A stretch of DNA of 64,000 nt from a virus (lineage: Duplodnaviria; Caudoviricetes). Within the stretch, counting starts at the first letter, position 1; each line of letters opens with the position of its first letter. Of the stretch, positions 2-34,530 are shown one piece after another. A program made the position numbers and the translations under genes. Below the pieces are notes generated by a model. The model worked only from the letters and a program-made list of their open reading frames with translations. It searched no databases and was not told the DNA's origin. The stretch lies in IMG/VR virus record IMGVR_UViG_3300025121_000013; one strand, 5' to 3'.

Positions 2-430
2 TCAATTAAAGAAATGAGATTTATTGCCAAACAAGCTGATAGAGAAAGATTTTATCCAAAACAAATAAACCCTATCACAAAAATTAATAACAAATATATT
101 CCCTATAGTCAGTTAACAACCCTGGGAAGAATGAGTCCTTTAAATGATGTTAATAGTGTTCGAGTGATTTTATATTGCAAAAGAGCTTTAAAGAACTTTT
201 GTCTTGGATATATTTTTGAGCAAAACGATCAGCAAACCTGGACATCTGTCGCAACAGATATTTCTGAATTCTTATCTATCGTTCAACAGGAAAGAGGTTT
301 GGACAGTTATACCATTGAGGTTTCAGCGACTGATTATGAAAAGAAATTAAAGAAATTTCATGTTAACGTAACCTTGGCTCCAACGCCAACCACAGAGCAA
401 ATATCTTTAAATTTCTTTATCACAAGATAA
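2..430 (+). CDS. Tail sheath protein, C-terminal part (T4 gp18-like), 5'-truncated by window edge
   Basis: Frame open from base 2; sheath C-terminal pattern (LNDVNSVRVILYCKRAL...YIFEQND..TW; VNVTLAPTPTTEQISLNF). Confidence 0.85.
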   Translation, partial: SIKEMRFIAKQADRERFYPKQINPITKINNKYIPYSQLTTLGRMSPLNDVNSVRVILYCKRALKNFCLGYIFEQNDQQTWTSVATDISEFLSIVQQERGLDSYTIEVSATDYEKKLKKFHVNVTLAPTPTTEQISLNFFITR

Positions 431-450: not shown

Positions 451-492
451 AAAATGGGGCAGGGAGATTCTTTAAATCCCTGTCCCATTTTT
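451..492. terminator. Bidirectional intrinsic terminator
   Basis: AAAATGGGGCAGGGA / TCCCTGTCCCATTTT stem (one G-U) with A/T tracts on both sides, between convergent genes. Confidence 0.85.
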
Positions 493-812
493 CATCTCAA
501 ATTTTCAAAAAAGAAATAATAATTGTTCTTAAATTTATATTTAGTCTTATGAATATGATTTAAAAAATTAGTTCTACAAAATTTAAACTTCATTTTTAAA
601 TGAGAAATAATTAACGTATGCATATTATTAGAAAAATGAAATTCAGCTTTGCAATTTGAACAGATAAGAATTTTAAAACATAATATACTCTTTTTAAAAT
701 CTATTGTTTTTTCCCCACATATTAGACAATAACTATCCTCTAATGAATTCAAAGAAAAATCCCCACATGGCATATCACATTGATCTTTCAAAATACATTC
801 AATACAAATCAT
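492..812 (-). CDS. Cys-rich array family protein (copy 1)
   Basis: CIECILKDQCDMPC + CLIC..CSNC. Confidence 0.85.
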   Translation of the reverse strand: MICIECILKDQCDMPCGDFSLNSLEDSYCLICGEKTIDFKKSILCFKILICSNCKAEFHFSNNMHTLIISHLKMKFKFCRTNFLNHIHKTKYKFKNNYYFFFENLR

Positions 813-1115
813 CGAACAACTCTCCTATATAAATTTTCAGAAAGAAAACTGTACATAAAATAATATTTTAAATTTTTTGAAAATATAGACATACTTATTG
901 TCTCAATTTGATATTTTTGATTGCAATTAATACATTCAATATTAATAACATTGTTATAAACAATTCTAGAATTACAAAAAATACATCGACAATTTCTAAA
1001 TGAATAAATTTTTGATTCAAAAAAACGCATTACATTTTTCAATCTGTATTGTTTTTAAAATATCAATGCAAGGGTTTTCACAAATATTTTGAAGAATGCA
1101 ATTATCACAAAGCAT
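809..1115 (-). pseudogene. Cys-rich family copy 2, split by +1 frameshift at TTT TTT TGA
   Basis: ATG at 1115 gives MLCDNCILQNICENPC..AFF*; +1 frame continues ESKIYSFRNCRCIFC..CINC to 809. Confidence 0.75.
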
Positions 1116-1479
1116 TTTTCTTCGCAATAAATCTATAAAAATATTCCATATGATAAAGAAGACAAATTCCTGAATATAAATCAGATTCCAATATAAAGCA
1201 TACAAAAGGTTCAAAAACATAAGTTATATTACAAGTTGAACATCTGGTAATTAAAGAATTGTTTATCGAGATTCCTCCTTTATTATGTAAATGTCCAAAA
1301 TTTTTATATTTGTTTTTAAGTTCTGTAAATATAAGATTATTGCAAAATACACATTTTGATTTATGTGGGGTATAGGGTCTAATCAATTGTTGAAAATTTA
1401 ATGTTTTTAAACGGTTATGTAATTCAGAACATATTTCATTATTACAAATATTTTGAAGAATGCAATTATCACAAAGCAT
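1105..1479 (-). CDS. Cys-rich family copy 3
   Basis: CDNCILQNICNNEIC + CVFC..CSTC. Confidence 0.85.
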   Translation of the reverse strand: MLCDNCILQNICNNEICSELHNRLKTLNFQQLIRPYTPHKSKCVFCNNLIFTELKNKYKNFGHLHNKGGISINNSLITRCSTCNITYVFEPFVCFILESDLYSGICLLYHMEYFYRFIAKKNAL

Positions 1480-1481
1480 AT

Positions 1482-1784
1482 TTATTCATTATATGTACTA
1501 AAACTTCCTTTATTAAAAATTATAATTCCCTTATCTTTTGTTTTTTTAGATTTAATTATTGTGCCAAAATTAGTTTGAAAATATTCTAACCCACAGTTTT
1601 GACAAAATGATTTTTTAGATATATACCTTTCATAAAAGCTAAATTTATTTTTACAAAAAATACAATGATCCATTTTGGTTCTATAAACACTTAAAATTCT
1701 TTCCATTTCTGAACATATATTTTTGCAAATATTTTGTATAATACATGCTTCACAAAGAAAACTACTAATTTTTAGGTTTTCCAA
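1482..1784 (-). CDS. Cys-rich family copy 4
   Basis: CEACIIQNICKNIC + CIFC..CQNC. Confidence 0.85.
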   Translation of the reverse strand: MENLKISSFLCEACIIQNICKNICSEMERILSVYRTKMDHCIFCKNKFSFYERYISKKSFCQNCGLEYFQTNFGTIIKSKKTKDKGIIIFNKGSFSTYNE

Positions 1785-2250
1785 TCAAAGCTATATTGGC
1801 TCCATTAAAGTTCAATTTTCGTTGAATAACTTCGAAAGATGAATTCTCAGCGATTCTTATTAAATGTTCTATCCATTTTTTTATATCTCTATTTTTATTA
1901 TTAAACTGAGTTGTGGTTGGCAATACGCAACAGGGAATAATAAAGAATGGAATTCTTCTTTTTAAAGATTCTGTTAAAATAATATCAGTTGCTTCATCTG
2001 GGTGAATTCCAACCAATAAATCAAAATTATCATTTTCTTTCTCAGAAAAATAAGTATTTTTAAAATTAATATTTTTTTCTCTTTTTCTTCTATTTCTTTT
2101 CTTATCAAAGGTCGTGATATTATAGTCAGATAATACTATTTGTAATTTTCCAGTTCCTCCAGCAATATCAGCAATATTCCTAAATTTTTCTTTTGGAAAA
2201 TAAAACCTTATGAGTCTTCCTGCCTCAAAAAACCTCTTTCTGTCTCCCAT
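1765..2250 (-). CDS. SAM-dependent methyltransferase-like protein
   Basis: IADIAGGTG SAM-binding motif; LVGIHPDEATD..IPCCV. Confidence 0.65.
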   Translation of the reverse strand: MGDRKRFFEAGRLIRFYFPKEKFRNIADIAGGTGKLQIVLSDYNITTFDKKRNRRKREKNINFKNTYFSEKENDNFDLLVGIHPDEATDIILTESLKRRIPFFIIPCCVLPTTTQFNNKNRDIKKWIEHLIRIAENSSFEVIQRKLNFNGANIALIGKPKN

Positions 2251-2296
2251 TTTTTCTCCTCTTCAAATCTAGATTTTTGTCAATTTTATAAAACTA

Positions 2297-2656
2297 TCAC
2301 ATAATATTTATGGATCTTCTCAAAGAATTTTTTCTTCTATAGCCTTGTTCTTTTAAAATAAATTTACAGCTTCTTTTTCTATGAAAATTTTTTATAAGAC
2401 AGAATTCATTTCGAAAATTTGTGAAAATAGAAAAATACAATTCTGTGATTCTGTATTTTGTTTTACAGTTAGAACATAGCCATCTATTTGGTGAAGGTTT
2501 TATTAATTTTAAGTCGCAGATCAAACATTTTTTATTTTCATTCTCTGAAAATATTGAATGCGTTTGAAGTTTAGCAATCGATTCATTTAAAAGAAAACAA
2601 TTATCACAATATGAATTTTTAAATATTAAACATTCAAAACAAGGAATATTAATCAA
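2297..2656 (-). CDS. Cys-rich family copy 5 (CxxC-x6/7-CxxC subfamily)
   Basis: CFECLIFKNSYCDNC + CLIC..CSNC. Confidence 0.85.
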   Translation of the reverse strand: MINIPCFECLIFKNSYCDNCFLLNESIAKLQTHSIFSENENKKCLICDLKLIKPSPNRWLCSNCKTKYRITELYFSIFTNFRNEFCLIKNFHRKRSCKFILKEQGYRRKNSLRRSINIM

Positions 2657-2985
2657 GTCTGAAACCCCATCTTAGGTTTTATTTTATAAGCTGTATCAAA
2701 TGTGTGATATTCTAAATATATGTTTTTAATAGATATAGATAAATAATTGAATGTACATATATAACTTACTCTACAATTTTCACACCAGTATCTATGAAAT
2801 AAATTAGCTTTTAAGTTTGATTTACAAAATAAACATGTCTTAATTTCTTGATTTGAAAATATTGGATTATTTTGGATTTTAATTTTAAAAAATTCTTCTT
2901 GTAAAAGAATGCAAGAAGAACAAGTCGGCATATTTAATAATAGGCATTCAAAACAAGGCACATGAAAAGAATTTAAATTAGTCAA
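2653..2985 (-). CDS. Cys-rich family copy 6
   Basis: CFECLLLNMPTCSSC + CLFC..CENC; TTG start. Confidence 0.85.
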   Translation of the reverse strand: MTNLNSFHVPCFECLLLNMPTCSSCILLQEEFFKIKIQNNPIFSNQEIKTCLFCKSNLKANLFHRYWCENCRVSYICTFNYLSISIKNIYLEYHTFDTAYKIKPKMGFQT

Positions 2986-3308
2986 GAATCAAATATTGAA
3001 AAACTTTTAATACTAACATTTGTCGAATGATAATATTCAAATTCTATTTCTTCTTTTATAAACCGAATATATAAATAGTGTGAAAATACTAAATAATAAA
3101 TTTTACAATGTTTGCATTCAAAATTAGGTTTTGAAATAACTGTTACGACTTTTTCGCAAAACAAACATGTCTTAATTTCTTGTTTTAAAAACATCGAATG
3201 ATCCTTAAGATTGTCAAATTCATCTTTTAGAAGTATGCATTGTTTACATCGATATTTTTTAAGAATGCAATTAAAACAAGGAATATGAAGAAAATCTGAA
3301 CTAATCAA
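2982..3308 (-). CDS. Cys-rich family copy 7
   Basis: CFNCILKKYRCKQC + CLFC..CKHC. Confidence 0.85.
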   Translation of the reverse strand: MISSDFLHIPCFNCILKKYRCKQCILLKDEFDNLKDHSMFLKQEIKTCLFCEKVVTVISKPNFECKHCKIYYLVFSHYLYIRFIKEEIEFEYYHSTNVSIKSFSIFDS

Positions 3309-3656
3309 TTAAAAAGGTAAAAAGGGCTAATCATAGGTTTTTTAAAATAATATTTATAAGTTCTATCAGGAGATAAAAAATATTCAATTAGAATATTAGA
3401 TTTTACTAATTTGATGCATAAATAATTTATAGTCATTATATATTGAATTTTACAATGTACACATAAATATTCATGTTTTGTAATAATATTGTCGGTATGT
3501 TTTCCACATATTAAACAATTACAAATCTCTTTTTTTAAAGACATTGAATTATTTTTAAATTTATCAAATTCATTTTTTAGAAGTATACAATCAACACGCA
3601 TAATTTTTAAGAATGCAATCAAAACAGTGAACTTGAAAAGAATTTAAATTAGTCAT
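3305..3656 (-). pseudogene. Cys-rich family copy 8, frameshifted by net 5-nt deletion
   Basis: ATG 3656 MTNLNSFQVHCFDCILKNYAC*; AATTATGC-GT-GTTGAT versus AATTATGC-TCAGTGC-GTTGAT in copy 9. Confidence 0.8.
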
Positions 3657-4015
3657 ATTCGAAAATTTGAATATTAGAAATTTCTCTTTTAAAATAAGTT
3701 TTATAAATATATTCTTCAAATGGAAAATATTCAATTAATATTTTTATTCATAAACCGAATGTATAAATATTTTCTAGAAACTACAAAATAAATTTTACAA
3801 TGAGTACATTCAAAATCACTTATTGAAATATATCTTGTCGGTTTTTCACAAAATAAACATTTTTTATTTTTTCTTTCTAAAAATATTAAATTATCTTTAA
3901 GTTTATAAAATTCATTCTTTAAAAGTATACAATCAACGCACTGAGCATAATTTTTAAGAATACAATCAAAACAATATATGTTAATATTTTTATTTAAATT
4001 ATGGAGTTCTTTCAT
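3649..4015 (-). pseudogene. Cys-rich family copy 9, C-terminal frameshift (2-nt deletion)
   Basis: AATATT--AATTGAATATTTT versus AATATTCTAATTGAATATTTT in copy 8; shifted frame IEYFPFEEY..FEYD* ends at 3649, overlapping the next ATG. Confidence 0.7.
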
Positions 4016-4521
4016 AACCTAAAATTTTCATTATTTGGAAGATTCTTCATTATTTCCTTAATTTGATCAAAAGAAACCGGATAAAAATTATTATTATCCA
4101 CTCCTATATCCCATGTTTTTCCATAGGGTTTCATCCTTCCGTGTGAATGCCCAAATAAAAGCCAACTATTATAATGTGATCTAGGCCATCTTAACATAGC
4201 GTAATGGCAAATTACAATATATTCTTTTTCATATTTTAATTCAAATATTTCATGATAAAATTTTTTATTAAGTTTCATCCAATAATCATGACTGCCTTTT
4301 AAAAAAATATGTTTTCCTTTTAAAGAATTTATATAATCTTGAACATCGGTTTTTAACAAAGAAAAATCTCCAGCATGAATAACAATATCATTCTCTTTAA
4401 CAATTTCATTATTATTTTGAATCAATTTATTATCCATCTCTGTTATATTTTTAAATGGTCGATTACATAATTTAATTATTTTTCTATGGCCATAATGTTC
4501 ATCAGAAGTGAAAAAATACAT
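4012..4521 (-). CDS. Calcineurin-like metallophosphoesterase
   Basis: FTSDEHYGH, HAGDF, GSHD, CHY, LFGHSHG, DIGVD motifs. Confidence 0.9.
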   Translation of the reverse strand: MYFFTSDEHYGHRKIIKLCNRPFKNITEMDNKLIQNNNEIVKENDIVIHAGDFSLLKTDVQDYINSLKGKHIFLKGSHDYWMKLNKKFYHEIFELKYEKEYIVICHYAMLRWPRSHYNSWLLFGHSHGRMKPYGKTWDIGVDNNNFYPVSFDQIKEIMKNLPNNENFRL

Positions 4522-4576
4522 ATTTTAAAACCCCTCCTGTACAAAAGATTTTATTGCTATTTTTTAGTATTTAGAT

Positions 4577-4897
4577 TTAATTAATTTCTATAGGAGATGA
4601 ACTAAATGTCCATATTACATTCTTTTTCACAAACCCAATTCGTCTGGTAGCTAACTGAACTCCAATTCCATTATTTTTCTTAAATTCAATAATTAAACTA
4701 CTAATAAAAGTCCTATATATGATATTACATTTTTCACAATAATAATTATCTCTTTCCTTATTAATAGTTTTACACCCACAATTTAAACAATTTTTTATTA
4801 TTCTATCCCATGAAAAAGTTTTAAAACTATTTATAATATTTGTACAAAGTTCTTTACATTGTGGTTTTAAAATACAATCAACACAAAGTAGTTTCAT
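4577..4897 (-). CDS. Cys-rich family copy 10
   Basis: CVDCILKPQCKELC + CLNC..CEKC. Confidence 0.85.
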   Translation of the reverse strand: MKLLCVDCILKPQCKELCTNIINSFKTFSWDRIIKNCLNCGCKTINKERDNYYCEKCNIIYRTFISSLIIEFKKNNGIGVQLATRRIGFVKKNVIWTFSSSPIEIN

Positions 4898-4913
4898 TTT
4901 GTTTTATTCCTCC

Positions 4914-5135
4914 CTAACATTTTCTTGATATAGAATGTTTATAGTCTATGTCTTTTAAAGGCTCATTACAAAATAAGCATCTGGTAAATCGATCATGATT
5001 TATAAAAAATTTATCATTTTTAACAATTTGTTTCCATTCTTTCATTAAGTTTAAAGTTATGGGGTTGAAGATTTTTATACAATCGTCACATTGTGAGTCA
5101 CAAGTTTTTGTTAAAATACAATGGCTACAAATCAA
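4914..5135 (-). pseudogene. Cys-rich family copy 11, C-terminally truncated
   Basis: CSHCILTKTCDSQC + CLFC; stops (TAG) after the first Cys of the last CxxC, directly into the GGAGG RBS of the next gene. Confidence 0.65.
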
Positions 5136-5548
5136 AGTGAGATCCCATAATCACGAATAATTATATTATCAAAATCATTATCTTTAGAATTTTTATGCAT
5201 ACAAATATAGTATTTTTCTATCTCAAAAATATGTCTCCTATCAACCAATTGAATAATCATTAAATTTGAAAAATTGGAAAACATATAAATTAAATTTTCT
5301 TTTTCACAATGAAATTTAGGAGCCCCATTTATTAAGGAAAATCTATCAGAAGATATATTTTTCTTTTTCTTTAGAATATCATCACAAAAAATACATTTAA
5401 TGGGTTCTAAATTTCCTATCCATTTAGCATCAGAATGATGAACTGATAAAAGTTCTTAGATTTGATCTTTCTTGTTTTTTACTATTTGAATTAAATTTAA
5501 ACACGCTGTATTACAACATTTTTCTAAAATACAATGATCACATATCAT
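5132..5548 (-). pseudogene. Cys-rich family copy 12 with in-frame TAA (not in ORF track)
   Basis: MICDHCILEKCCNTAC..KKDQI*(5456-5458)ELL..KCIFC..FHCEKE..GISL*; final TGA overlaps the TTG of copy 11. Confidence 0.8.
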
Positions 5549-5563
5549 ATCTTTCCTTTCATA

Positions 5564-5923
5564 TTATATTTCATATTGAGGCAAAGAAAAATCTAATTTT
5601 CCACTTTCGGAATTATAATTTTTTCCTAAGGTAATTTTTCCATTAGGAAAACTAGGATAATTAAATATGAAAAATAAATTATATTTTTGACCTTCTATAA
5701 TTAAAAAAATTCTATCAAGAAGAAAATAATATAAAATTTTACAATTGGGACATTTAAATGAATGTGGGTAGTTTTGAACACGTTTTAATTTCACTTCGCA
5801 AAAAATACATTTTAAAGTTTTATTAATACTCCAGATTTGTTTTTTAGATTTTTTAACGAAATCAATTATAAAAATACAAGGAGCATTGCATTCTTTAGAA
5901 ATAATACAATCAATACAAATCAT
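5564..5923 (-). CDS. Cys-rich family copy 13
   Basis: CIDCIISKECNAPC + CIFC..CPNC. Confidence 0.85.
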   Translation of the reverse strand: MICIDCIISKECNAPCIFIIDFVKKSKKQIWSINKTLKCIFCEVKLKRVQNYPHSFKCPNCKILYYFLLDRIFLIIEGQKYNLFFIFNYPSFPNGKITLGKNYNSESGKLDFSLPQYEI

Positions 5924-6312
5924 TTTTCAACTATTCTTTTAAATTGATCATTTTTTATATAAAAATCTTTTGATAAATAAATATTTTTCTTGTGTGCCGC
6001 TACCTCAACAAAAAATAAATACGTTGAATTTAAGGGTTTTATAAGAAATATATAATATCGAGAAAATTCATATCTATTTTCATATAAAAATACAGTTTTA
6101 CATTTTTTGCACCTTTTTGGGAGTGCAAAAGAGCCATCTATTAAAGGTATGTTCTCACAAATTCCATCACAAAATAAACACGGTTCAAAATTCATATTAT
6201 TTAATATTTCCCATCTTCTCTTAACATGCCAAGCCAACTTTTTTAAAATAATTTTTGAATCATCACATGGAAAATTACATATTCTTGTTAAAATGCAGTT
6301 ATCACATATCAT
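5920..6312 (-). CDS. Cys-rich family copy 14
   Basis: CDNCILTRICNFPC + CLFC..CKKC; GGAGAG RBS before ATG 6312. Confidence 0.85.
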   Translation of the reverse strand: MICDNCILTRICNFPCDDSKIILKKLAWHVKRRWEILNNMNFEPCLFCDGICENIPLIDGSFALPKRCKKCKTVFLYENRYEFSRYYIFLIKPLNSTYLFFVEVAAHKKNIYLSKDFYIKNDQFKRIVEK

Positions 6313-6330
6313 AAGTTTTAATCTCTCCAA

Positions 6331-6365
6331 GCTCCTTAAGTGCGAACGTCAAATTCTTAAGGAGC
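6331..6365. other. Intergenic hairpin, 10-bp perfect stem
   Basis: GCTCCTTAAG-N15-CTTAAGGAGC. Confidence 0.6.
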
Positions 6366-6380
6366 ATTTTAGTTGTGAAT

Positions 6381-6914
6381 TTATCTTTTCTCAAAATGAT
6401 TTTTTCTAACATTATGAAATGTAGTTTCAGTTTCCCTTTTTAAATTTTCAGGTTCTTTAAAATAATAATAAAGATAGTACGGAACCAAATTATTTTTGTA
6501 GTACATATCTTCAAGAATATATTCTCCTCGGTTTCTGGCATATTGTGCTTTTGGATCTTTAATTATTTTCATTGTATATAAAAGTAAAACGCCTTTTGTA
6601 TTTTCTCCCAATTTTATTAAAATTCTCATATGTATTAAATATAACGATATGTCAGGACGTTTTCTTGTGAAAGAAATTATTTCTGGTTCACACTTTGCTT
6701 CAATCAATCTCTTTAATAAATCTTTTTCTGAAATGATAAAATTAAAATAATCTGAATAAATTGAATCAAGTTCAGGAAGATTTTTAAACCCTATTATTTT
6801 TCCTTCAAAGATTCCTGGAAGAAAATCATATGGGCCATTATTTGCTAAACAATTAGAACTTGTGAAGATTAATAAAAATATGAATAAAGATATCGTTTTA
6901 ACCATAGCTTTCAT
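6381..6914 (-). CDS. Hypothetical exported protein
   Basis: N-terminal signal-peptide-like KTISLFIFLLIFTSSNCLA; 177 aa. Confidence 0.6.
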   Translation of the reverse strand: MKAMVKTISLFIFLLIFTSSNCLANNGPYDFLPGIFEGKIIGFKNLPELDSIYSDYFNFIISEKDLLKRLIEAKCEPEIISFTRKRPDISLYLIHMRILIKLGENTKGVLLLYTMKIIKDPKAQYARNRGEYILEDMYYKNNLVPYYLYYYFKEPENLKRETETTFHNVRKNHFEKR

Positions 6915-6952
6915 GAACGATTCCTTTCCTTTTTAAATCACATTACTAAAGA

Positions 6953-7273
6953 TTAAAAATTTTCTATAAATATCTTTGAGGAAACAAAATTTCTGCTAAA
7001 AATATATTTCGTTTTATAAATAAGCATTGTTAAATCATTATTATTATTATCTTTAATATGTATTCTTCGATTTGTGATAAAATAATGAATTGAACATTTT
7101 AGACATTTGGAACGCCCCATATATATTTTTAACTGGGAATTACAAAATATACATTTATTTATTTCATTGTTTAAAAAATTTAAAATTCTGTTTTTATTTT
7201 TAGTTATCTCTTCAAAAAGATTAATACATATTTCATTGCAATTAAAACCTAAAATACAATTAACACAAATCAT
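6953..7273 (-). CDS. Cys-rich family copy 15
   Basis: CVNCILGFNCNEIC + CIFC..CLKC. Confidence 0.85.
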   Translation of the reverse strand: MICVNCILGFNCNEICINLFEEITKNKNRILNFLNNEINKCIFCNSQLKIYMGRSKCLKCSIHYFITNRRIHIKDNNNNDLTMLIYKTKYIFSRNFVSSKIFIENF

Positions 7274-7682
7274 TAGGCAACTTTATACTAACGCCGGGAA
7301 GAATTTCAGTTGAATTAAAAACTTTTGTAACTGTTAATTTTTTAAAGGAGTCATCGATAAAAAATTCTGTTTTTCTATCAAGAAATAATTGTATAACGTA
7401 ACCTCTTCCATTATAGTTAAAATATATATTACAATTTTTACATATTTTTACAGAATTATTTGGAGCTTGTTCTAATTTTGAATCACAATAAATACAATTG
7501 ATCATAATAGGTTGTTTTAAAACATAAAGTATTTCTTTTATTTTATAAATTATCAATTCATCCATGATTCTATGACAAGGATAAAAACATATATTTTTTA
7601 AAATACAAATAGAACAATATGTTCTTCCATCAATTTTTATATTTTTTAAAATTTTGTTTTTATCAAAAATATAGTTAGACAT
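7260..7682 (-). CDS. Cys-rich family copy 16
   Basis: CSICILKNICFYPC + CIYC..CKNC; ATG 7682 overlaps the upstream stop. Confidence 0.8.
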   Translation of the reverse strand: MSNYIFDKNKILKNIKIDGRTYCSICILKNICFYPCHRIMDELIIYKIKEILYVLKQPIMINCIYCDSKLEQAPNNSVKICKNCNIYFNYNGRGYVIQLFLDRKTEFFIDDSFKKLTVTKVFNSTEILPGVSIKLPNDLC

Positions 7683-8055
7683 CTTGTTCAATGACCTTTG
7701 AAGAATAAAGACGCATACCATTTTTATGTAATTGAAAATGGTTTAAATCCATGCAAATTTCTATTAAGAAATTTTCACTTATTATAAGGCGAACATAATC
7801 TACGAAAATATAATATTTTTGCCCGCAAACGCAACATTTATAATTAAGTTTACTTTTTAGATAAATACCAGAATCTGCCATTTGTAAATTGTTATCACAT
7901 AACAAACATTTTGTCACTCTCTTAGATAAAGTATAATTTCTTATAAAATTATTTTTAATTTTTTTAATCTCATTTTCATATTCTTTGCAAATGTTAAAAC
8001 ATATTCTTTTTAAAATACATTTGCCGCAAATTTCTAAAAAGTTTTTAGAGAACAT
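7675..8055 (-). CDS. Cys-rich family copy 17
   Basis: CGKCILKRICFNIC + CLLC..CCVC. Confidence 0.8.
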   Translation of the reverse strand: MFSKNFLEICGKCILKRICFNICKEYENEIKKIKNNFIRNYTLSKRVTKCLLCDNNLQMADSGIYLKSKLNYKCCVCGQKYYIFVDYVRLIISENFLIEICMDLNHFQLHKNGMRLYSSKVIEQDV

Positions 8056-8413
8056 ATTCTTTTCCATGTGTCAAATGAAATATTTGTTTATCATTTTTTG
8101 ATACTATTAAATAAACCATTATAGTACTAATCTCAATTTTGTAATCTTCTTTTTTAAAACAAATATAATCTAAAAAACTATAATATAACTGGTTACAATT
8201 TGGACACTTATACCACATATTTAACCTATCTATTTTTATTTTTATAACTCTTTCACCACAAATTAAACATTGTTCTATATGTTTGTATAATTTAAAATCT
8301 TTTTCAAAATTATTTTTCATTTCTATAAGTTTATTTTTATATTCTAAGCAAATAGGAATACAAACATTTTTTAAAATGCAATTATTACAAAAAGTTAAAA
8401 TATTATTATTCAT
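8045..8413 (-). CDS. Cys-rich family copy 18
   Basis: CNNCILKNVCIPIC + CLIC..CPNC; ATG 8413. Confidence 0.8.
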   Translation of the reverse strand: MNNNILTFCNNCILKNVCIPICLEYKNKLIEMKNNFEKDFKLYKHIEQCLICGERVIKIKIDRLNMWYKCPNCNQLYYSFLDYICFKKEDYKIEISTIMVYLIVSKNDKQIFHLTHGKEYVL

Positions 8414-8756
8414 ATATGAACAGCAATTTCTCTTTGAAAGAAATATTTTCTTGATCAATAATTTTTTTAAAGTACAATACATTGCCAATATTAAAAACTT
8501 TAATTTCACAATTACCAATACAAAAAGAAAATGCCCAGTCACAGACTAAATTAAAATTATATTTGACTCCACACTTACAATTATAAGAAATGATAATTCC
8601 CAATGGAATTTCTAGATCACAAAAAATACAGTATCTGGGTTTCTCATTTAATAATTGATTCATTTTTAATTTTCTCGGTTCAAATTCTTCTTTGACAATT
8701 CTTTCACAAAATTCAAAACATGTACGGTTTAAAATGCAATTATTACAAAAAAACAT
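8406..8756 (-). CDS. Cys-rich family copy 19
   Basis: CNNCILNRTCFEFC + CIFC..CKC. Confidence 0.8.
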   Translation of the reverse strand: MFFCNNCILNRTCFEFCERIVKEEFEPRKLKMNQLLNEKPRYCIFCDLEIPLGIIISYNCKCGVKYNFNLVCDWAFSFCIGNCEIKVFNIGNVLYFKKIIDQENISFKEKLLFIYE

Positions 8757-9126
8757 TTTTATGTACTGTTTCATTTAGTTCAACTGGAATATAACTATTT
8801 GTAACATTTTTCACTCTTTTAAAACCTATATTAAAATTTCTTTTCACTATCCAATATAATTCTTCGTTTTCTTCAATTACAACAAAACTTTCTGAGCAAC
8901 TCTCAACCCCTATGTTAAATTTCAAATTACAAAAATCACATTTAAAACTTAGAATATTTGATTGTTTATTTATCATTAATAATCTTCCACAATTCATACA
9001 TATTCTTTCTCCAACAAGAACACTTCTAATTTTTTCTAAAGATAATTTTTTAGAAATTTCTTCTATTCTATAACAATTTTTTTCACAAATTATTTTGCAT
9101 ATACAATCGGAACATGGAAATATCAT
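8743..9126 (-). CDS. Cys-rich family copy 20
   Basis: CSDCICKIICEKNC + CMNC..CDFC. Confidence 0.85.
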   Translation of the reverse strand: MIFPCSDCICKIICEKNCYRIEEISKKLSLEKIRSVLVGERICMNCGRLLMINKQSNILSFKCDFCNLKFNIGVESCSESFVVIEENEELYWIVKRNFNIGFKRVKNVTNSYIPVELNETVHKNVFL

Positions 9127-9503
9127 AACGAAATCTCTCTTTCATCTTGAGGTTTAAATATTTTATATTTTGAAGTTCGTTCTCCTAAATTCAAATATAT
9201 CTTATCAAAGAATACTATTAAAAGAATTATTTCATACGGAGTTTTAATATAAATTTTTCCCATGGTTAAAAATATATTAAATGTATATGAAAGATTGCAT
9301 CTAGAACATTTTTTATGAAAAAGTATGTCATTACAATTAAGGGATGTTTTAGATAGAGTTTCCCCACAATTTATACAAATGTTTTTATTTGTTTTTATAT
9401 TATATAAAATATACTTTCTTTTTTCTTTAAAATTTTGAAGAATATTATAACAAGGAAAATGACAATTATTTTTTAAAATACAATTTAGACATTGTTTTGT
9501 CAT
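9123..9503 (-). CDS. Cys-rich family copy 21
   Basis: CLNCILKNNCHFPC + CINC..CSRC. Confidence 0.8.
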   Translation of the reverse strand: MTKQCLNCILKNNCHFPCYNILQNFKEKRKYILYNIKTNKNICINCGETLSKTSLNCNDILFHKKCSRCNLSYTFNIFLTMGKIYIKTPYEIILLIVFFDKIYLNLGERTSKYKIFKPQDEREISL

Positions 9504-9871
9504 TCTAGATGTATTCTTATAAAAGCAGGATAATTCCATGCAGTTTCATCTGAATAAAAACTCATCCAATTTTTGCTAATACTAATAATTTTAGATCTTT
9601 GATCAATGGAAAATAAAAATCTATGTCCAGGTAATAAAAATTTTATGCACCAAGTTAATATAAATATTGTATTACAGTTTGGACAAATTTTTAATCTTTC
9701 ATACTCCTTAAAATCCTTAAGTAATTTTTCACAAAATATGCATTTATTTTTTCCTAATAAAATTAAATTTTTTGAAAGTGTGGTTTTGTTTTCTTCAAAA
9801 TATTTTTCAGTCAATGAACAAATTTGGTAACAACTATTTCCTAAAATACATTCTTGACAAGGAGGAATCAT
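9500..9871 (-). CDS. Cys-rich family copy 22
   Basis: CQECILGNSCYQIC + CIFC..CPNC. Confidence 0.85.
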   Translation of the reverse strand: MIPPCQECILGNSCYQICSLTEKYFEENKTTLSKNLILLGKNKCIFCEKLLKDFKEYERLKICPNCNTIFILTWCIKFLLPGHRFLFSIDQRSKIISISKNWMSFYSDETAWNYPAFIRIHLE

Positions 9872-10241
9872 ATCTTATCATATCCTTAACTTTTCCATTT
9901 AAATAAAAATATTTATAATTCTTTGAAATTACCAAATGTGTTTCAGATATCTGAATGTCAAATATAAATTTGTGGTTGAATAAACGAAATTCAAAACACC
10001 CTACCATTGATCCAAATGCCGTATTACATTTAGGGCAGGTTTTTTTAAAAACAGATGGATTACTTTTTAATAATTTCTCTTTACAAAATATACATTGTTC
10101 ATTTATTTTTACAATATTGATCATATTTATAATTTCCTGTTTATTTTCTTCAAAATAATTTTTTGTTATCACACAAATTTGATAACAATTATTTTTTAAA
10201 ATACAATTAGTATCACAAGGGAGAAACAATTGAGATATCAT
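9834..10241 (-). CDS. Cys-rich family copy 23
   Basis: CDTNCILKNNCYQIC + CIFC..CPKC; start uncertain. Confidence 0.8.
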   Translation of the reverse strand: MISQLFLPCDTNCILKNNCYQICVITKNYFEENKQEIINMINIVKINEQCIFCKEKLLKSNPSVFKKTCPKCNTAFGSMVGCFEFRLFNHKFIFDIQISETHLVISKNYKYFYLNGKVKDMIRYDSSLSRMYFRK

Positions 10242-10554
10242 ACTGAGACGTATATTCACTGGTTTTAAAATACCAATATTCTTTTGTCAAATAAATTAAA
10301 AATCTACTTTTTGGTAAATTGACAACCAGGCTAAAACCATAAAATATATTCATAAAAGTAGTGGCACATTTGGGGCATTTTCCTCCAGGGACGTTTTGTA
10401 ATCTATCTAATTCAATATTACAAAATAAACATTTTTCTATAGATATTAAATTATCATCTGTTGAAAATAGTTTTCGATTTTCTCTAATATAGTTTCGAGT
10501 TTGATCACATATTCGGTCACATGCACTTATCAAAATACAATTCAAACAAAACAA
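10213..10554 (-). CDS. Cys-rich family copy 24
   Basis: CLNCILISACDRIC + CLFC..CPKC; TTG start. Confidence 0.85.
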   Translation of the reverse strand: MFCLNCILISACDRICDQTRNYIRENRKLFSTDDNLISIEKCLFCNIELDRLQNVPGGKCPKCATTFMNIFYGFSLVVNLPKSRFLIYLTKEYWYFKTSEYTSQYDISIVSPL

Positions 10555-10878
10555 TTAAATTATCACAGTGCAATCGTCATTTTTTATTTCATTTTTATAA
10601 ATAACCCCTTTATTAATTCTTATTTGTTTTGTATTTTTATTTATTGAGATTAAAAAATTATATTTTTTATTTAAAATCAGATAATATAGAGGATGCAAAC
10701 TCATATACATTAAATTTCAGTTCATACAATATAAATTAATTAAAGTATCCCCACAAAATAAGCAATTAGAAAAATCTTGATTTTTAAAGAACCGGTTTTT
10801 ATTTTTAAGAAAAGGGTCAATTATTTTTTGACATGATAAATTACAAAAATTATTTAAAATGCAAGTATTACAAATCAT
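10555..10878 (-). pseudogene. Cys-rich family copy 25 with in-frame TGA at a conserved Cys (nonsense allele or Sec candidate; not in ORF track)
   Basis: MICNTCILNNFCNLSC..CLFCGDTLINLYCMN*(10717-10719)NLMY..DCTVII*; both ends abut neighbouring genes. Confidence 0.8.
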
Positions 10879-11327
10879 TTATAAATTATTTCTTTTATAA
10901 ATCGAGCTGGTGAACCATAATAAAGGCCTGGTTTTATTATGTTTTTAGAAACTAAAGACCCAGCCCCTATAATTGTATTTTCAACAATTTCAATTCCAGC
11001 TAAAATAATACAGCCAGACCCTATAATACAATTTTTATGAATGATAGTTATTTTCTCTTCTTCATCAGACCCAATATATTTAGTATGATTAAATATAACC
11101 CCTGGGCCGATAAAACAATTATCTTCAATGATAACATTTTTAGATATAATTGCGTTAGGCCTTATATTTACGTTTTTTCCAATAAAACAAGACCCGGTAG
11201 TTTTTACCCCATCTCCTATAATCGAATTTGATCTAATATGAGTTCCTGATTTTAATACAACCATATTTCCAATTAGAACATTATCACCAATAAAAACCTT
11301 ATTCTCAATTACACAAAATTCTCCCAT
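10875..11327 (-). CDS. Left-handed beta-helix (hexapeptide) acyltransferase
   Basis: Repeated I-G-x-x-x-x-I hexapeptides; IGAGSLV; YYGSPARFIK. Confidence 0.85.
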   Translation of the reverse strand: MGEFCVIENKVFIGDNVLIGNMVVLKSGTHIRSNSIIGDGVKTTGSCFIGKNVNIRPNAIISKNVIIEDNCFIGPGVIFNHTKYIGSDEEEKITIIHKNCIIGSGCIILAGIEIVENTIIGAGSLVSKNIIKPGLYYGSPARFIKEIIYK

Positions 11328-11331
11328 GTTT

Positions 11332-12009
11332 TTATCTCCTTAAACGTGCGGGATTTCCAAAATAAGTTGAATCTGGTTTTGTACTTTCCAATAAAACTGA
11401 TCCAATTCCTATGGTTGAAAACTTTGAAATGCATAGATTATTTGATATGGTTGATCCGGGTCCAATATAAGTTCCTTTCTCTATAACACAATCTCCGCAA
11501 ATTGTTGAATTGGCACCAATATAAACAAAATCTTTAATGATACTTTGCCCACCAATATGTGACCCAGCTATAATTGTGGAAAATTCTCCTATTCTAACCA
11601 TTGGACTAATAGTGACATTTGGCCCAATAAAAATTCCTTTCTCTAAAATATAATTTTTAGGCATTGACACAGAATGATGAATAACAGATAAAATTTGTTT
11701 GTCAGGAATGTTCATTTTTTTAATCAAATTAATTCGACTTTTCATATCGTTAACTTTTAACAAAGAAAAAGCAAAAAGGCAACCGTCATCTATACGTCTC
11801 TGAATATCATTAAAAGATTCAAGAACTGGAATTCCTAAAAAAACAGATCCAATTGGAAAATTATCATCTAAAAATCCCAAAATTTTATGTTCTGATTTCA
11901 CAAAATTTGTATAAAAAGTATGTTCTCTATAAATGCTTGCGCCGCCTATAATTGCATCTGCAATTTGTATTCCAGCTGAACGGACTCCGAGTATGATTAT
12001 ATTTTTCAT
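11332..12009 (-). CDS. Sugar O/N-acetyltransferase, PglD/NeuD family
   Basis: N-terminal IIILG..GFLDD Rossmann-like domain plus hexapeptide repeats ending YFGNPAR. Confidence 0.85.
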   Translation of the reverse strand: MKNIIILGVRSAGIQIADAIIGGASIYREHTFYTNFVKSEHKILGFLDDNFPIGSVFLGIPVLESFNDIQRRIDDGCLFAFSLLKVNDMKSRINLIKKMNIPDKQILSVIHHSVSMPKNYILEKGIFIGPNVTISPMVRIGEFSTIIAGSHIGGQSIIKDFVYIGANSTICGDCVIEKGTYIGPGSTISNNLCISKFSTIGIGSVLLESTKPDSTYFGNPARLRR

Positions 12010-12269
12010 TTCTTCTTTCTCCTTCTATATTGAAATATCAATATTAAAATCCATAAATTTATTATGATACAAAAAATATTTGAAATTATCATTGGATTGT
12101 TTGAAATTTTGAACCCATAAATTATCCACCATATTTGTCCATGAATAACAATGAGCCATAATGATATCGAAATATCATCACTTCTTTTTCTTTGATACAA
12201 TTTGATAATTTGTGGAACCCCAGAAAAAGCCATTGATACCCCAATTATTGTAATCCAAAAATCAATCAA
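12006..12269 (-). CDS. SemiSWEET / PQ-loop sugar transporter
   Basis: 87 aa, three TM helices, VPQIIK, DIS, WIIYG, PMIISN motifs. Confidence 0.85.
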   Translation of the reverse strand: MIDFWITIIGVSMAFSGVPQIIKLYQRKRSDDISISLWLIVIHGQIWWIIYGFKISNNPMIISNIFCIIINLWILILIFQYRRRKKK

Positions 12270-12691
12270 GGAAGTACAAGCCTTACCACCCCATTGTGAA
12301 GCTTATCGTCTCTATACCTAGAAAAATCTTCTGAACATATATGAAACTGCCTCACAATATCCATTCTAAATATTCTAACATTTAAATGTTCTGTATGAAA
12401 ATAATCAATTAAAATTTGTTTTTCATTTTTAATAAGAATTGCAAAAAACTTATAATTAGGAGTGTATAAATATTGAACGTCACAAATTCCACAAGAATAT
12501 AAACAATTAGGAAACAAGTGTTCTTCTCTTTTGTTTAATAATTCTTCTCCACAAAATACACAATTATTTAATATTGTGTCTTTATAACTATTATTATCAA
12601 TTAATTCTTTGAAGTTAATCATTTTAATTAGATTTTTACACGGGGTTTCACATGTCTTTTTTAAAATACATTCTATACAACAAATTTTCAT
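12266..12691 (-). CDS. Cys-rich family copy 26
   Basis: CIECILKKTCETPC + CVFC..CGIC. Confidence 0.85.
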   Translation of the reverse strand: MKICCIECILKKTCETPCKNLIKMINFKELIDNNSYKDTILNNCVFCGEELLNKREEHLFPNCLYSCGICDVQYLYTPNYKFFAILIKNEKQILIDYFHTEHLNVRIFRMDIVRQFHICSEDFSRYRDDKLHNGVVRLVLP

Positions 12692-12701
12692 TCTTCCTCC
12701 T

Positions 12702-13058
12702 TTAAGTTATATTGACATAATGATATTTATGAAGAATTAAAATATTATAAGTGTCTGGATGTTTATATCTGTTAAATCTATAAATATTAAAAAAACTATA
12801 AATTCGTTTAGAAATAAAAACATCAAAAATGAAATTAAAATTTGAATCTTTTTCAATTAATAAAAAACAATCGTTTCTATGACTTATCATTTGAAAAGTA
12901 ATATTACAATTCCCACATTGATTAGCGACTAAATATTTTTCACAAAAAATACATTTTTCTAATCTTATTAAATTTTGTATATTTTTTATTGTGTGAACAA
13001 AATCAATACAAACTAAATCACATGAATTTTTTAGAATGCAATTATTACAAAGAAACAT
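12702..13058 (-). CDS. Cys-rich family copy 27
   Basis: CNNCILKNSCDLVC + CIFC..CGNC. Confidence 0.85.
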   Translation of the reverse strand: MFLCNNCILKNSCDLVCIDFVHTIKNIQNLIRLEKCIFCEKYLVANQCGNCNITFQMISHRNDCFLLIEKDSNFNFIFDVFISKRIYSFFNIYRFNRYKHPDTYNILILHKYHYVNIT

Positions 13059-13464
13059 CTAATTTCACCTGATTTTCTCGATTTAGGCTTATTAAATAAG
13101 ATATATTATATAACGAGTCTTTAAAATAGGTAGTGAATTTAAAAACTGTAAATAAAGTACTGTTTCTATTAGCTTTTATAAAATCAAAAATAAATAAATT
13201 TTTATTTTTTGATATTATTGCAAAACATTCAACTCTAGAAACACCTATATATCTTAATTTACACCCTTCACAAATAAAAAGATTATTAGATTTTTCAGTT
13301 TTTCCTGTTAATTTGTTTTTACAAAATACACAATGCTCTGGTCGTTTTCGATATTTATTAATACTATAATCATTTATAATTATTGAGAAATCTATTTCTT
13401 TAATAATTTCATCGCATGGTTTCATACATGTAAAACATAAAATACAATTATCACAAATTAACAT
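13045..13464 (-). CDS. Cys-rich family copy 28
   Basis: CDNCILCFTCMKPC + CVFC..CEGC. Confidence 0.85.
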   Translation of the reverse strand: MLICDNCILCFTCMKPCDEIIKEIDFSIIINDYSINKYRKRPEHCVFCKNKLTGKTEKSNNLFICEGCKLRYIGVSRVECFAIISKNKNLFIFDFIKANRNSTLFTVFKFTTYFKDSLYNISYLISLNRENQVKLDVSL

Positions 13465-13855
13465 ATAAAATAAGTCCTTTATCTTTTTTATCATGGATCA
13501 ACCTAGTCAAGTTTTGATCTGTTTTTAAAAACCGATGAGAAACATTTACTCGAAATATTATAAAATGCATACGATTTGAAGAAAAATTATCATAATCAAA
13601 AATAAATTTTGGCTTTATGCTTTCTGCATAAGATAATGAAAAACATTTCCAACGAAAAGTTGATGAATATATTATATTACAATTTTTACATTTTAAATCA
13701 AAAAAATTCCCTTCAAACACTTTTCCACAAAATAAACAAACGGGAGGAAAAAGCGTTACACCCTTAAAATGTTGAAAATTCATATTTTTTATGATCTCTT
13801 CACATGGCTTCACGCAGGTAAAAGTTAAAATACATTTTTCGCAGAGATCAATCAA
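13451..13855 (-). CDS. Cys-rich family copy 29
   Basis: CEKCILTFTCVKPC + CLFC..CKNC. Confidence 0.85.
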   Translation of the reverse strand: MIDLCEKCILTFTCVKPCEEIIKNMNFQHFKGVTLFPPVCLFCGKVFEGNFFDLKCKNCNIIYSSTFRWKCFSLSYAESIKPKFIFDYDNFSSNRMHFIIFRVNVSHRFLKTDQNLTRLIHDKKDKGLILYVNL

Positions 13856-14238
13856 GGCGTCTTCTCCTTTGTATCTAAAGGTATAAAATTAAATGATCTA
13901 TTATGTAAAATATTTATAGCTATTTTTGAAAAAGATATATATGTCTGAATTTGTTTAAAAAATATTTCAATTGAGATTTTATGATTAATCAAAAGAATAG
14001 ATGAACAATATTCACAAGTTTCACGTATTATATGAGGAGAGGCATTATAAACTTTATATTTGCCATCATATAAATATTTTCCACAACAAAAACAATGTAA
14101 AAATTCTTTTTGATTAATCAGATCAAAAATAGTTTTTTGATTTTTAAAAATATATTGTAATGATGAAGCACATGATTCTTGACAATAACCAATTAAAATG
14201 CAATCTAAACAAGGGAATCTCTCAAATCTATTTTTCAA
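13852..14238 (-). CDS. Cys-rich family copy 30
   Basis: CLDCILIGYCQESC + CFCC..CEYC. Confidence 0.85.
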   Translation of the reverse strand: MKNRFERFPCLDCILIGYCQESCASSLQYIFKNQKTIFDLINQKEFLHCFCCGKYLYDGKYKVYNASPHIIRETCEYCSSILLINHKISIEIFFKQIQTYISFSKIAINILHNRSFNFIPLDTKEKTP

Positions 14239-14600
14239 GGAGATTTTCCAGTCCTTAAGATAATTCCTTCTGACATAAAATCTTTTGGGTGGTTTCTTAA
14301 GACCAATAATTTATTAATATAAAATTCCAACGATAGCAAAATATTATTATTTTTTTCATCCAGAAAAAATATATCTGAAAAATAAATTATTCTTAATCCA
14401 CATGTTTTACAAAATCTGACTGGGATATAATCTCCTGTTTCAAATAAAAGTTTTTCTTCACAATAAATACATTTTGAACTATCAACATTTTTAAAAAAAT
14501 CTATCTCCTTAAGATATGGTTTAAACATTTTATCTACAATTTCTTTGCAGCATTCTAAACATTGATTTTTTAAAATACAATCGATGCATAGGCATTTCAT
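14235..14600 (-). CDS. Cys-rich family copy 31 (first in operon)
   Basis: CIDCILKNQCLECC + CIYC..CKTC; AGGAGAG RBS. Confidence 0.85.
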   Translation of the reverse strand: MKCLCIDCILKNQCLECCKEIVDKMFKPYLKEIDFFKNVDSSKCIYCEEKLLFETGDYIPVRFCKTCGLRIIYFSDIFFLDEKNNNILLSLEFYINKLLVLRNHPKDFMSEGIILRTGKSP

Positions 14601-14683
14601 ATTTTCTCTCCTATGAACATATGGATTTTCATTCTATATAATTCTTTAAGATTCTAAATAAAAAAAATAAAACCTTAACTCAT

Positions 14684-14699
14684 TTATTAATATATATAG
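14684..14699. promoter_or_regulatory. 16-bp AT box TTATTAATATATATAG
   Basis: Identical 16-mer (reverse complement) at 34569-34584; both intergenic. Confidence 0.55.
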
Positions 14700-14727
14700 T
14701 TTATAATTCTAAACTTGTATCTTTTAT

Positions 14728-14743
14728 AGAACAAAATATAAAT
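14728..14743 (+). promoter_or_regulatory. Putative late promoter AGAACAAAATATAAAT
   Basis: Motif recurs upstream of five virion-gene units, always in sense orientation. Confidence 0.7.
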
Positions 14744-14812
14744 TTCTTTTTAAGAATTGAATCTAAGAAAAATTAAGGGTTTAAATATCTATAAGTAAGG
14801 ATCTTTAAAATA

Positions 14813-16272: not shown

Positions 16273-16285
16273 TGAGGATAAAATT

Positions 16286-17377: not shown

Positions 17378-17615
17378 AAACATTTGAAGATTTAATTAAA
17401 GCGGCTAAGCTTGATATTAAATATGAAGTTTTACAATTAGCATTAAACGAATTAGATAAAAAATATTTGCAAATTTTTTCGAAATATAAAATAATGAAAA
17501 ATCCAGAGATTTGTAAAAAGAAGGCTGAAATGAATTACGATAAAGAAAATGAAGGAATTTATAGATCTCATGGATTTGGATATGCTATTCAAAAGTATGA
17601 TTAAAAATAACTCTT

Positions 17616-17631
17616 AGAACAAAATTTAAAT
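17616..17631 (+). promoter_or_regulatory. Putative late promoter AGAACAAAATTTAAAT
   Basis: One mismatch to the 14728 motif, 35 nt before ATG 17666. Confidence 0.6.
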
Positions 17632-17665
17632 CAGCTTTACTTAAACATAAGCAGGAGATATGTAT

Positions 17666-18273: not shown

Positions 18274-18311
18274 ATAATTCTTTTAAATAAACATAGTAGG
18301 AGATAAACCAG

Positions 18312-34515: not shown

Positions 34516-34530
34516 TTCATAATTCTCCAT

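Follow-up and report, generated by a model that had tools for sequence, protein, structure and literature searches.

Positions 492-14600 of a 64,000-nucleotide stretch of DNA from a virus of the class Caudoviricetes (IMG/VR record IMGVR_UViG_3300025121_000013; the whole stretch is called the window here) carry 31 units of a single family of small cysteine-rich proteins, all on the minus strand. Twenty-six of these units are intact and five are broken. The source is an uncultivated jumbo myovirus of groundwater with a genome of about 265-274 kb; metagenomes of groundwater and soil yield the same sequence on contigs of 264-274 kb, among them the NCBI assembly GCA_902731115.1. The array accounts for about 5% of the genome of about 265 kb, which holds 33-34 copies in all. 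The array is a viral multigene-family expansion built on an undescribed family of predicted phage zinc proteins, and the size of the expansion is its surprising part. We favor, at a probability of about 0.4, a library of binders, proteins built on a two-metal scaffold that would serve host takeover or counter-defense.

Organization of the gene array

The units were recognized concordantly in a listing of open reading frames (ORFs), in a motif scan, and with a profile hidden Markov model (HMM) built from the 26 intact copies. The profile matches 33 ORF segments at 495-14633 on the minus strand, which resolve into 31 gene units; the remaining 49 kb of the window contain a single further match (62684-63106). 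Intact copies encode proteins of 94-149 amino acids (Table 1), and ORFs of 94-149 codons exceed by far what chance would give in DNA of 22-25% GC. Together with six embedded unrelated genes, the array forms a co-directional block of 37 genes that run head to tail over 14.1 kb. Adjacent genes overlap at 25 of the 36 junctions, mostly by 4 nucleotides (ATGA or TTGA), and the only gaps longer than 60 nucleotides consist of the debris of broken copies. Copy 24 has an out-of-frame remnant of its N-terminal coding region at 3600-3655 (repeat family D10).

A preliminary description of this DNA had reported 31 same-strand cysteine-rich paralogs, most of which overlap or abut their neighbors, and in both count and character this account was essentially right. 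The block as a whole does not consist of the family only, given the six unrelated genes within it. Of the six broken copies that the description counted, five were found; the sixth is probably copy 23 (3731-4015), which retains all eight cysteines and has a shortened tail. The description also overlooked that the fragments 5456-5566 and 5132-5455 are a single unit.

Cysteine core, ribbon, and variable tail

In the 26 intact copies, eight cysteine columns never vary and follow the pattern C-x2-C-[IL]-L-x3-C-x3-C, about 22-30 residues, C-x-F-C, 12-30 residues, C-x2-C. The N-terminal spacing CX2CX5CX3C is unvarying in most copies, and this N-terminal four-cysteine knuckle reads (P)CxxC[IL][ILV]xxxCxx(P)C. 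The ribbon cysteines, C5-C8, are also invariant in 28 other members and relatives. Because both TGT and TGC are used at every one of the eight sites, the conservation lies at the level of the protein rather than in a DNA repeat. Outside the cysteines the copies have diverged widely, with a mean pairwise identity of about 24% and a maximum of 55%. The core (about 63 residues) is 33% identical, as compared with 23% for shuffled sequences, whereas the tail (about 53 residues) is hardly alignable, at 22.6% versus 20.8% for shuffled sequences. Aromatic and beta-branched residues abound in this fast-evolving tail, and phenylalanine, tyrosine, and isoleucine together account for 30% of it.

AlphaFold2 (AF2) models of two copies with 22% mutual identity have the same layout: a cysteine-bearing N-terminal segment (confidence 57-72), two to three short helices, the ribbon, and a six-stranded antiparallel sheet. 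The model of copy 10 (9500-9871) has a mean predicted local distance difference test (pLDDT) score of 83.2 and a predicted template-modeling score of 0.73; that of copy 4 (13045-13464) has a pLDDT of 72.7. The ribbon region exceeds a pLDDT of 90 in copy 10, and strands flank both knuckles in both models. The longer of the two modeled copies adds a C-terminal helix after the sheet. In a profile search of PDB sequences, the ribbon half alone matches GATA, RPA12, Elf1, and eL43, with marginal expect values (E) of 3e-4 to 0.1. On these grounds, the second half of the protein (CxxC...CxxC) is predicted to be a Cys4 zinc ribbon. The conserved metal-binding core and the variable aromatic, beta-rich C terminus of the preliminary description thus both find support, the former in the eight invariant cysteines and the ribbon matches, the latter in tail composition and the modeled sheets.

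The first four cysteines probably constitute a metal site of their own that is not cross-braced with the ribbon. Several small proteins of another phage contig (L022, IMGVR_UViG_3300049156_000026) carry an N-terminal PCxxC[IL]VxxxCxxxC motif without a ribbon; in those encoded at 2693-3195 and 10689-11489, the motif is followed by a helical, acidic region. Since the motif occurs there by itself, the first four cysteines are most likely autonomous, the two sites are likely sequential, and the four-cysteine motif appears to be a mobile module in its own right. A cross-brace of the RING, B-box, or IBR type was considered and rejected: the full spacing C-x2-C-x5-C-x3-C-x22-30-C-x2-C-x12-30-C-x2-C is unlike that of RING or B-box domains, the four-cysteine motif stands alone in L022, and the models IBR_1, ANCHR BBOX, and zf-RING_10 match below threshold in one member each. 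No signal peptide or membrane segment is seen in the listed family sequences, and the proteins are therefore taken to be cytoplasmic.

In SPASM domains, which harbor auxiliary 4Fe-4S clusters (PMC5715301, PMC6231123), the central cysteine motif has the same spacing, CX2CX5CX3C, and eight cysteines would be enough for two clusters. By this alternative, the N-terminal motif, alone or with the other four cysteines, would bind [4Fe-4S] or [2Fe-2S] clusters, and the family members would act in redox reactions or electron transfer or as redox sensors. We consider it highly unlikely, as no SPASM, radical SAM, or ferredoxin model matches any member, the second set of cysteine pairs is that of a typical zinc ribbon, the motif occurs without a partner enzyme domain, and 31 such proteins would burden an infected cell with a heavy demand for cofactors. 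The SPASM domain itself was rejected for the 39 members searched, none of which matches SPASM or radical SAM: at 95-150 residues, they have nothing upstream of the motif and lack the upstream CX9-15GX4C, a downstream cysteine, and the radical SAM domain. With the rest of the domain absent, the likeness is a lead for metal analysis only.

Search for a known family or fold

Searches of Pfam, PHROG, and NCBIfam gave no above-threshold match for the window copies or for their relatives outside the window. Sub-threshold matches to Pfam zinc fingers are scattered, the commonest family appearing in 3 of 39 members. Fold searches were run with the two AF2 models. Foldseek against the PDB gave a best E of 0.9; against BFVD, the best match (E 0.014, within noise) was an unnamed 95-residue protein of an uncultured phage; searches of Swiss-Prot and the AFDB clusters gave no matches; and in the ESM Atlas no template-modeling score exceeded 0.44. 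Run against 48,161 chains, VIA-align reached best Z scores of 4.3 and 5.2, which are not above noise. Polo-box and LolA-like folds recurred among the weak matches and were set aside because they lie inside the stated noise band of the tool. The ESM Atlas feature search found generic phage zinc-ribbon clusters only (scores of 0.85 or less), nearly all matches of word-seeded protein searches were the query phage's own proteins, and no relevant published description of the family was found in the literature. The earlier statement that no named family is recognizable stands.

The control region

A conserved 14-nucleotide box, CTATATATATTAAT in the sense of the array, precedes its first gene and is the candidate array promoter. 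It has three exact matches in the window, as compared with 0.23 expected. An identical box in the same orientation lies 42 nucleotides before the first gene of an eight-copy array in a related phage (L013), and the divergent region as a whole (14601-14812, 212 nucleotides) is conserved with L013 7168-7310, though the proteins of the two phages are only about 50% identical. Both divergent regions also contain a AGAACAAA(A)TAT motif, oriented toward the structural operon and away from the array. Further copies of the box are found before the terminase gene (34569-34582) and in three other contigs (L005, L016, and L017); elsewhere than at the arrays, they precede structural genes in the other orientation. 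Because of this, and because the box is nearly palindromic (ATTAATATATATAG / CTATATATATTAAT), its assignment to the array is tentative.

As the block has no internal non-coding space, a single upstream promoter is the simplest reading. The block would then be one transcription unit that starts at the box, in the divergent region that it shares with the late structural operon, and the 4-nucleotide overlaps would couple the translation of each gene to that of the next. A scan for sigma-70 promoters and terminators gave 160 sites against 136 expected, which is uninformative in DNA this rich in AT. Among RNA sequencing runs, none was found that contains the region.

Evolution of the array

Neighboring copies resemble each other more closely than do random pairs (p<1e-4 by permutation), and the supported sister pairs are mostly physical neighbors (13045/13451, 7675/8045, 9500/9834, and the group at 2297-4015); a non-adjacent pair, 492-812 with 4577-4897, also occurs. 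Copies 29 (1105-1479) and 30 share an exact stretch of 36 nucleotides encoding MLCDNCILQNIC, the flanks of which have diverged. Short-read assemblies break at exactly this repeat, and the exact patch and the breaks together point to recombination at the conserved 5' motif. The array may have grown by unequal recombination at this motif and decayed by frameshift and truncation. In a phylogenetic tree, rough on account of its long branches, seven of the L013 copies form one clade (96/87), the eighth (P0049) lies next to it, and the opposite side of the tree takes in 26 of the 27 window copies. Because the L013 copies form a clade of their own, the two arrays appear to have expanded independently.

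Similarity of neighbors, pseudogenes, and independent expansion in a related lineage are the signs of tandem birth-and-death evolution, and all three are present here. The birth-and-death model that had been proposed for the array is therefore well supported by these signs and by the 36-nucleotide patch. The active gene "accordion" proposed with it is not: the array is an old, fixed birth-and-death expansion, since its copies are at most 55% identical and the assemblies compared contain the same copies and the same breaks. Three assemblies (L001-L003) passed through the profile have the same copies, the same five broken units, and identical scores, and at least 24 contigs are listed for the first array copy. 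In the contigs of four sequencing runs, which belong to the same clonal phage, no convincing change in copy number is seen. Many apparent "joints" in these contigs were rejected as rearrangements, because their sides are only 20-27 nucleotides long at 80% likeness, and were read as cross-matches between paralogs. The comparison of copy number across phages that had been suggested thus gave the independent eight-copy expansion of L013 and no convincing change among the assemblies compared of the present phage.

Only two variants were seen in the four runs and the protein matches. One is an 18-nucleotide in-frame deletion at 10108 in copy 9 (run X10; protein P0023), and the other is a variant N terminus of copy 10 (P0006), in which three substitutions cluster in the first eight residues (9850-9871). 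Such clustering hints at patchy gene conversion. Pairwise ratios of nonsynonymous to synonymous divergence (dN/dS) of the closest pairs are 0.46-0.93, and the tail exceeds the core in four of six pairs; with dS saturated in a genome of 23% GC, these values are suggestive at most.

The broken units (5 of 31), the high dN/dS ratios, up to 0.93, and the nearly unalignable tails would also fit an array that is largely neutral or selfish, propagated by recombination at the repetitive 5' motif, with weakly constrained copies drifting toward pseudogenes. We regard such an array as improbable. Twenty-six copies keep all eight cysteines and full-length ORFs in DNA of 23% GC despite identities of only 20-35%, the overlapping start and stop junctions are kept, both modeled copies have the same fold, and a second phage has kept the family and expanded it independently. 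Phage genomes are, moreover, under packaging pressure, and 14 kb of junk would be unusual.

Distribution in other phages

A profile search of 1.84 billion representative proteins gave 61 matches at E <=1e-3, about half of which are this phage's own. The remaining matches and a motif scan of IMG/VR place the family in other uncultivated phages. The related phage L013/L034 (101-kb contig), whose tail sheath is 51% and a structural protein 48% identical to those of the present phage, has eight tandem copies next to its tail sheath cluster. At least three copies are present on each of two IMG/VR contigs, of 277 and 224 kb; among further IMG/VR contigs, one of 142 kb has two, one of 244 kb has five short forms, and one of 87 kb has three; L012 has two copies, the 698-bp contig L004 at least two, and L010/L011 a single copy among helicase, AAA ATPase, exonuclease, and ligase genes. 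All IMG/VR matches and contexts that were looked up are phage contigs. A tblastn search of 50,697 GenBank phage records with one window copy and two short-form relatives as queries found no match, and megablast of the whole array against GenBank phages found no match at the DNA level. Judged by these searches, the family is rare, phage-restricted, and prone to tandem duplication, with the present phage as the extreme case seen here. The "undescribed system" of the preliminary description is accordingly a single protein family rather than a multi-component system, and it occurs in other phages too, in groups of 1-8.

The present genome has two copies outside the array. One (P0027) lies elsewhere on the 265-kb contig, outside the window. 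The other is the dispersed copy near the high end of the window, which overlaps the stop codon of the GTP cyclohydrolase I gene and precedes DNA ligase and radical SAM genes (62681-63930, minus strand); its context appears to be one of nucleotide or DNA modification.

These single copies bear on another explanation, namely that the proteins are small zinc-ribbon DNA- or RNA-binding factors of replication, recombination, or transcription. The variable domain would then set specificity, and the array would supply regulators, or binders of particular sites, that act on the genome or transcripts of the phage itself. The surroundings of both the L010/L011 copy and the dispersed copy suit this idea, as do the resemblance of the ribbon half to the ribbons of transcription and ribosomal proteins, the multisubunit RNA polymerase that the phage encodes, and the basic character of most copies (isoelectric point 8.1-9.5 in 23 of 26). 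Basic proteins are, however, expected from lysine-rich, AT-biased coding. Thirty-one regulators would lie far above any known phage program, and the tails have no recognizable nucleic-acid-binding fold. We therefore hold this explanation to be possible, though rather unlikely.

Embedded genes and genomic neighborhood

Six genes unrelated to the family are embedded in the array (Table 1). The gene for a SemiSWEET-type transporter, unusual for a phage, and those for two acyltransferases that are paralogs of each other (10875-12269, minus strand) are tied into the array through 4-nucleotide overlaps; together, they suggest a role in sugar uptake or modification during infection. The others encode a metallophosphoesterase, a protein with a signal-like N terminus, and a weakly methyltransferase-like protein.

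The window has a GC content of 22-33%. Among its other products are two baseplate proteins, one of T4 type and one of the wedge; with the terminase, the tail sheath, and the RNA polymerase subunits encoded just past the window, they mark the DNA as that of a large tailed phage. The array is flanked by the tail sheath gene on one side and the baseplate/structural operon on the other and is transcribed opposite to both. This position, shared with the L013 array next to its own tail sheath cluster, raises the alternative of a virion-linked role, in which the proteins would be cargo, packaged or injected, that joins a common N-terminal module to a variable payload, or else tail or adhesin accessories that widen host range; a conserved N terminus with a variable remainder suits the idea. 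The direction of transcription speaks against it, as does the late-type AGAACAAA(A)TAT motif, which points away from the array. The embedded genes are of a metabolic accessory kind rather than structural, other members of the family lie in replication regions, and in three relatives that share a 263-residue structural protein at 54-56% identity, the DNA retrieved on either side of the gene for this protein contains no array. A virion-linked role is thus unlikely.

Several neighboring features were observed in passing. Four consecutive genes of the structural module at 16205-20268 (plus strand; 390, 157, 316, and 324 amino acids) are mutually paralogous, and three of them match one 386-residue gene of L013. 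Another small family of paralogs, unrelated to the cysteine-rich one, comprises four genes of about 100-114 amino acids that are dispersed among accessory genes of the minus strand. Past the high end of the window (L018 4112-9854) lie genes for two subunits of a multisubunit RNA polymerase, one beta'-like (908 amino acids) and one beta-like (998 amino acids), with a ThiF/E1-like gene and a gene for a Rho_N-domain protein nearby. No E2 gene recognizable by Pfam was found in the stretch fetched beyond the window end, in which the ThiF and RNA polymerase genes were seen.

Table 1. Features of the window, with copies of the cysteine-rich family numbered in the direction of transcription (aa, amino acids; RBS, ribosome-binding site)
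Feature	Position	Strand	Description
14-nucleotide box	14686-14699	-	CTATATATATTAAT; 86 nucleotides before first ATG; candidate array promoter
Copy 1	14235-14600	-	121 aa, intact; strong RBS GGAGAG
Copy 2	13852-14238	-	128 aa, intact; TTG start within 4-nucleotide overlap (TTGA)
Copy 3	13451-13855	-	134 aa, intact; sister of copy 4 in tree
Copy 4	13045-13494	-	139-149 aa, intact; AF2-modeled (13045-13464)
Copy 5	12702-13058	-	118 aa, intact
Copy 6	12266-12691	-	141 aa, intact; RBS AAAGGAGG
SemiSWEET-type PQ-loop sugar transporter	12006-12269	-	87 aa; Pfam MtN3_slv 1.9e-11, PQ-loop 5.7e-7
Hexapeptide-repeat (left-handed beta-helix, LbH) acyltransferases, two	11332-12009, 10875-11327	-	225 and 150 aa; Pfam Hexapep 3.6e-13, 4.6e-22
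Copy 7	10555-10878	-	Broken: N-terminal half of 53 aa (profile 7-56) ends in stop, remainder degenerate
Copy 8	10213-10554	-	113 aa, intact
Copy 9	9834-10259	-	141 aa, intact; strain variant known
Copy 10	9500-9871	-	123 aa, intact; AF2-modeled
Copy 11	9123-9539	-	138 aa, intact
Copy 12	8743-9126	-	127 aa, intact; sole window copy grouping (weakly) with clade of related phage
Copy 13	8406-8774	-	122 aa, intact
Copy 14	8045-8413	-	122 aa from ATG at 8413, intact; ORF open to 8542
Copy 15	7675-8067	-	130 aa, intact
Copy 16	7260-7682	-	140 aa from ATG at 7682, intact; ORF open to 7721
Copy 17	6953-7273	-	106 aa, intact
Protein with hydrophobic N-terminal signal-like segment	6381-6914	-	177 aa; no family match
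Copy 18	5920-6330	-	130-136 aa, intact
Copy 19	5564-5923	-	119 aa, intact
Copy 20	5135-5563	-	Broken by frameshift: N-terminal part 5459-5563 (profile 5-36), C-terminal part 5135-5455 (41-108), different frames
Copy 21	4914-5135	-	Broken: truncated, 73 aa, ends before last CxxC
Copy 22	4577-4897	-	106 aa, intact; RBS GGGAGG
Calcineurin-like metallophosphoesterase	4012-4521	-	169 aa; Pfam Metallophos 3e-4 (above cut-off), Metallophos_2 4.8e-5
Copy 23	3731-4015	-	94 aa, all 8 Cys, shortened tail; tail remnants past stop (repeat family D18)
Copy 24	3305-3655	-	Broken: profile match from position 21 only; first Cys pair lost or out of frame
Copy 25	2982-3308	-	108 aa, intact; 55% identity with copy 23, closest pair of the array
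Copy 26	2653-2985	-	110 aa, intact
Copy 27	2297-2656	-	119 aa, intact
Weakly methyltransferase-like protein	1765-2250	-	161 aa; Pfam Methyltransf_32 3.6e-4, below cut-off
Copy 28	1482-1784	-	100 aa, intact
Copy 29	1105-1479	-	124 aa, intact; first 36 nucleotides are those of copy 30
Copy 30	809-1223	-	Broken by frameshift: N-terminal part 1020-1223 (profile 5-34), C-terminal part 812-1054 (25-96)
Copy 31	492-812	-	106 aa, intact; last gene of block, convergent with 3' end of tail sheath gene
Tail sheath gene, C terminus	2-430	+	Pfam Phage_sheath_1C 6.9e-7
Terminase large subunit	32899-34530		About 30% identity with Flavobacterium phage terminases
Second paralog family	38790-39089, 59598-59939, 60741-61082, 61069-61413	-	Four genes
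Dispersed copy	62681-63088	-	135 aa; profile 1.5e-10 and 7.7e-13; between GTP cyclohydrolase I and DNA ligase genes

A possible library of binding proteins

In the favored explanation, the metal-stabilized core would be a rigid scaffold, the variable sheet would form the binding or working surface, and the divergent copies would act on different macromolecules of the host or of competitors. The block has an accessory character, as is seen from the SemiSWEET, acyltransferase, and phosphoesterase genes embedded in it. Several observations weigh against a role in takeover or counter-defense. The single-copy relatives among replication and DNA-metabolism genes fit nucleic-acid binding equally well or better, and the tail genes beside the arrays here and in L013 leave room for a link to the virion. 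The spacing of the N-terminal motif fits iron-sulfur sites too. The pairwise dN/dS values, with dS saturated, cannot separate positive selection from relaxed constraint, and the nearly palindromic box in the divergent region may serve the opposite operon.

A more specific variant, which we consider very unlikely, is that the shared N-terminal module docks on one phage partner, such as the phage's ubiquitin-like conjugation enzymes or its RNA polymerase, while each of the roughly 26 sheet tails selects a different host protein. If true, the array would be a phage counterpart of the TRIM, F-box, and BTB families of substrate adaptors and would neutralize many defenses at once.

Comparison with known systems and significance

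Like the Cys4 zinc ribbons of RPA12/Rpb12, Elf1, eL43, and GATA fingers, the family has two CxxC knuckles 12-30 residues apart with beta hairpins; unlike them, it has an additional N-terminal Cys4 motif and a beta-sheet tail that are without counterpart, and no single Pfam ribbon recurs among its matches. Small cysteine-rich or zinc-ribbon paralog groups of phage early regions, as collected in PHROG, are likewise phage-only, tandem, and fast-evolving, but none matches the family. The internal proteins and hyperplastic regions of T4 offer another parallel: a hypervariable accessory locus near structural genes, whose products share a common N-terminal element and differ in the remainder. The array resembles them in locus and N-terminal design; its proteins have no evident capsid-targeting sequence and no sequence relation to those of T4.

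Large DNA viruses contain well-known multigene families and accordions, among them K3L of poxviruses, MGF360/505 of African swine fever virus, and the ankyrin, BTB, and F-box expansions of giant viruses. The array shares with them tandem expansion on one strand, an accessory region, the signs of birth-and-death evolution, and a combination of conserved and variable modules. It differs in having a bacterial host, old copies (at most 55% identical), a copy number that is constant between samples, and an unrelated protein family. A gene accordion in the poxvirus sense was rejected on the same maximum identity and on the sameness of copies and pseudogenes in the assemblies compared. Expansions of this size are familiar in giant eukaryotic viruses and poxviruses, where they mark the front line of the conflict between host and virus; to our knowledge, no other phage carries a family expanded in tandem to 31 copies.

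The family merits a profile model even if no function is assigned to it, since it turns up in several phage contigs from metagenomes, five of which span 87-277 kb. If its copies bind different targets, the array would be a ready panel for finding the targets of host defense and takeover in an uncultivated phage-host pair, and the protein would be a small natural binder scaffold as well.

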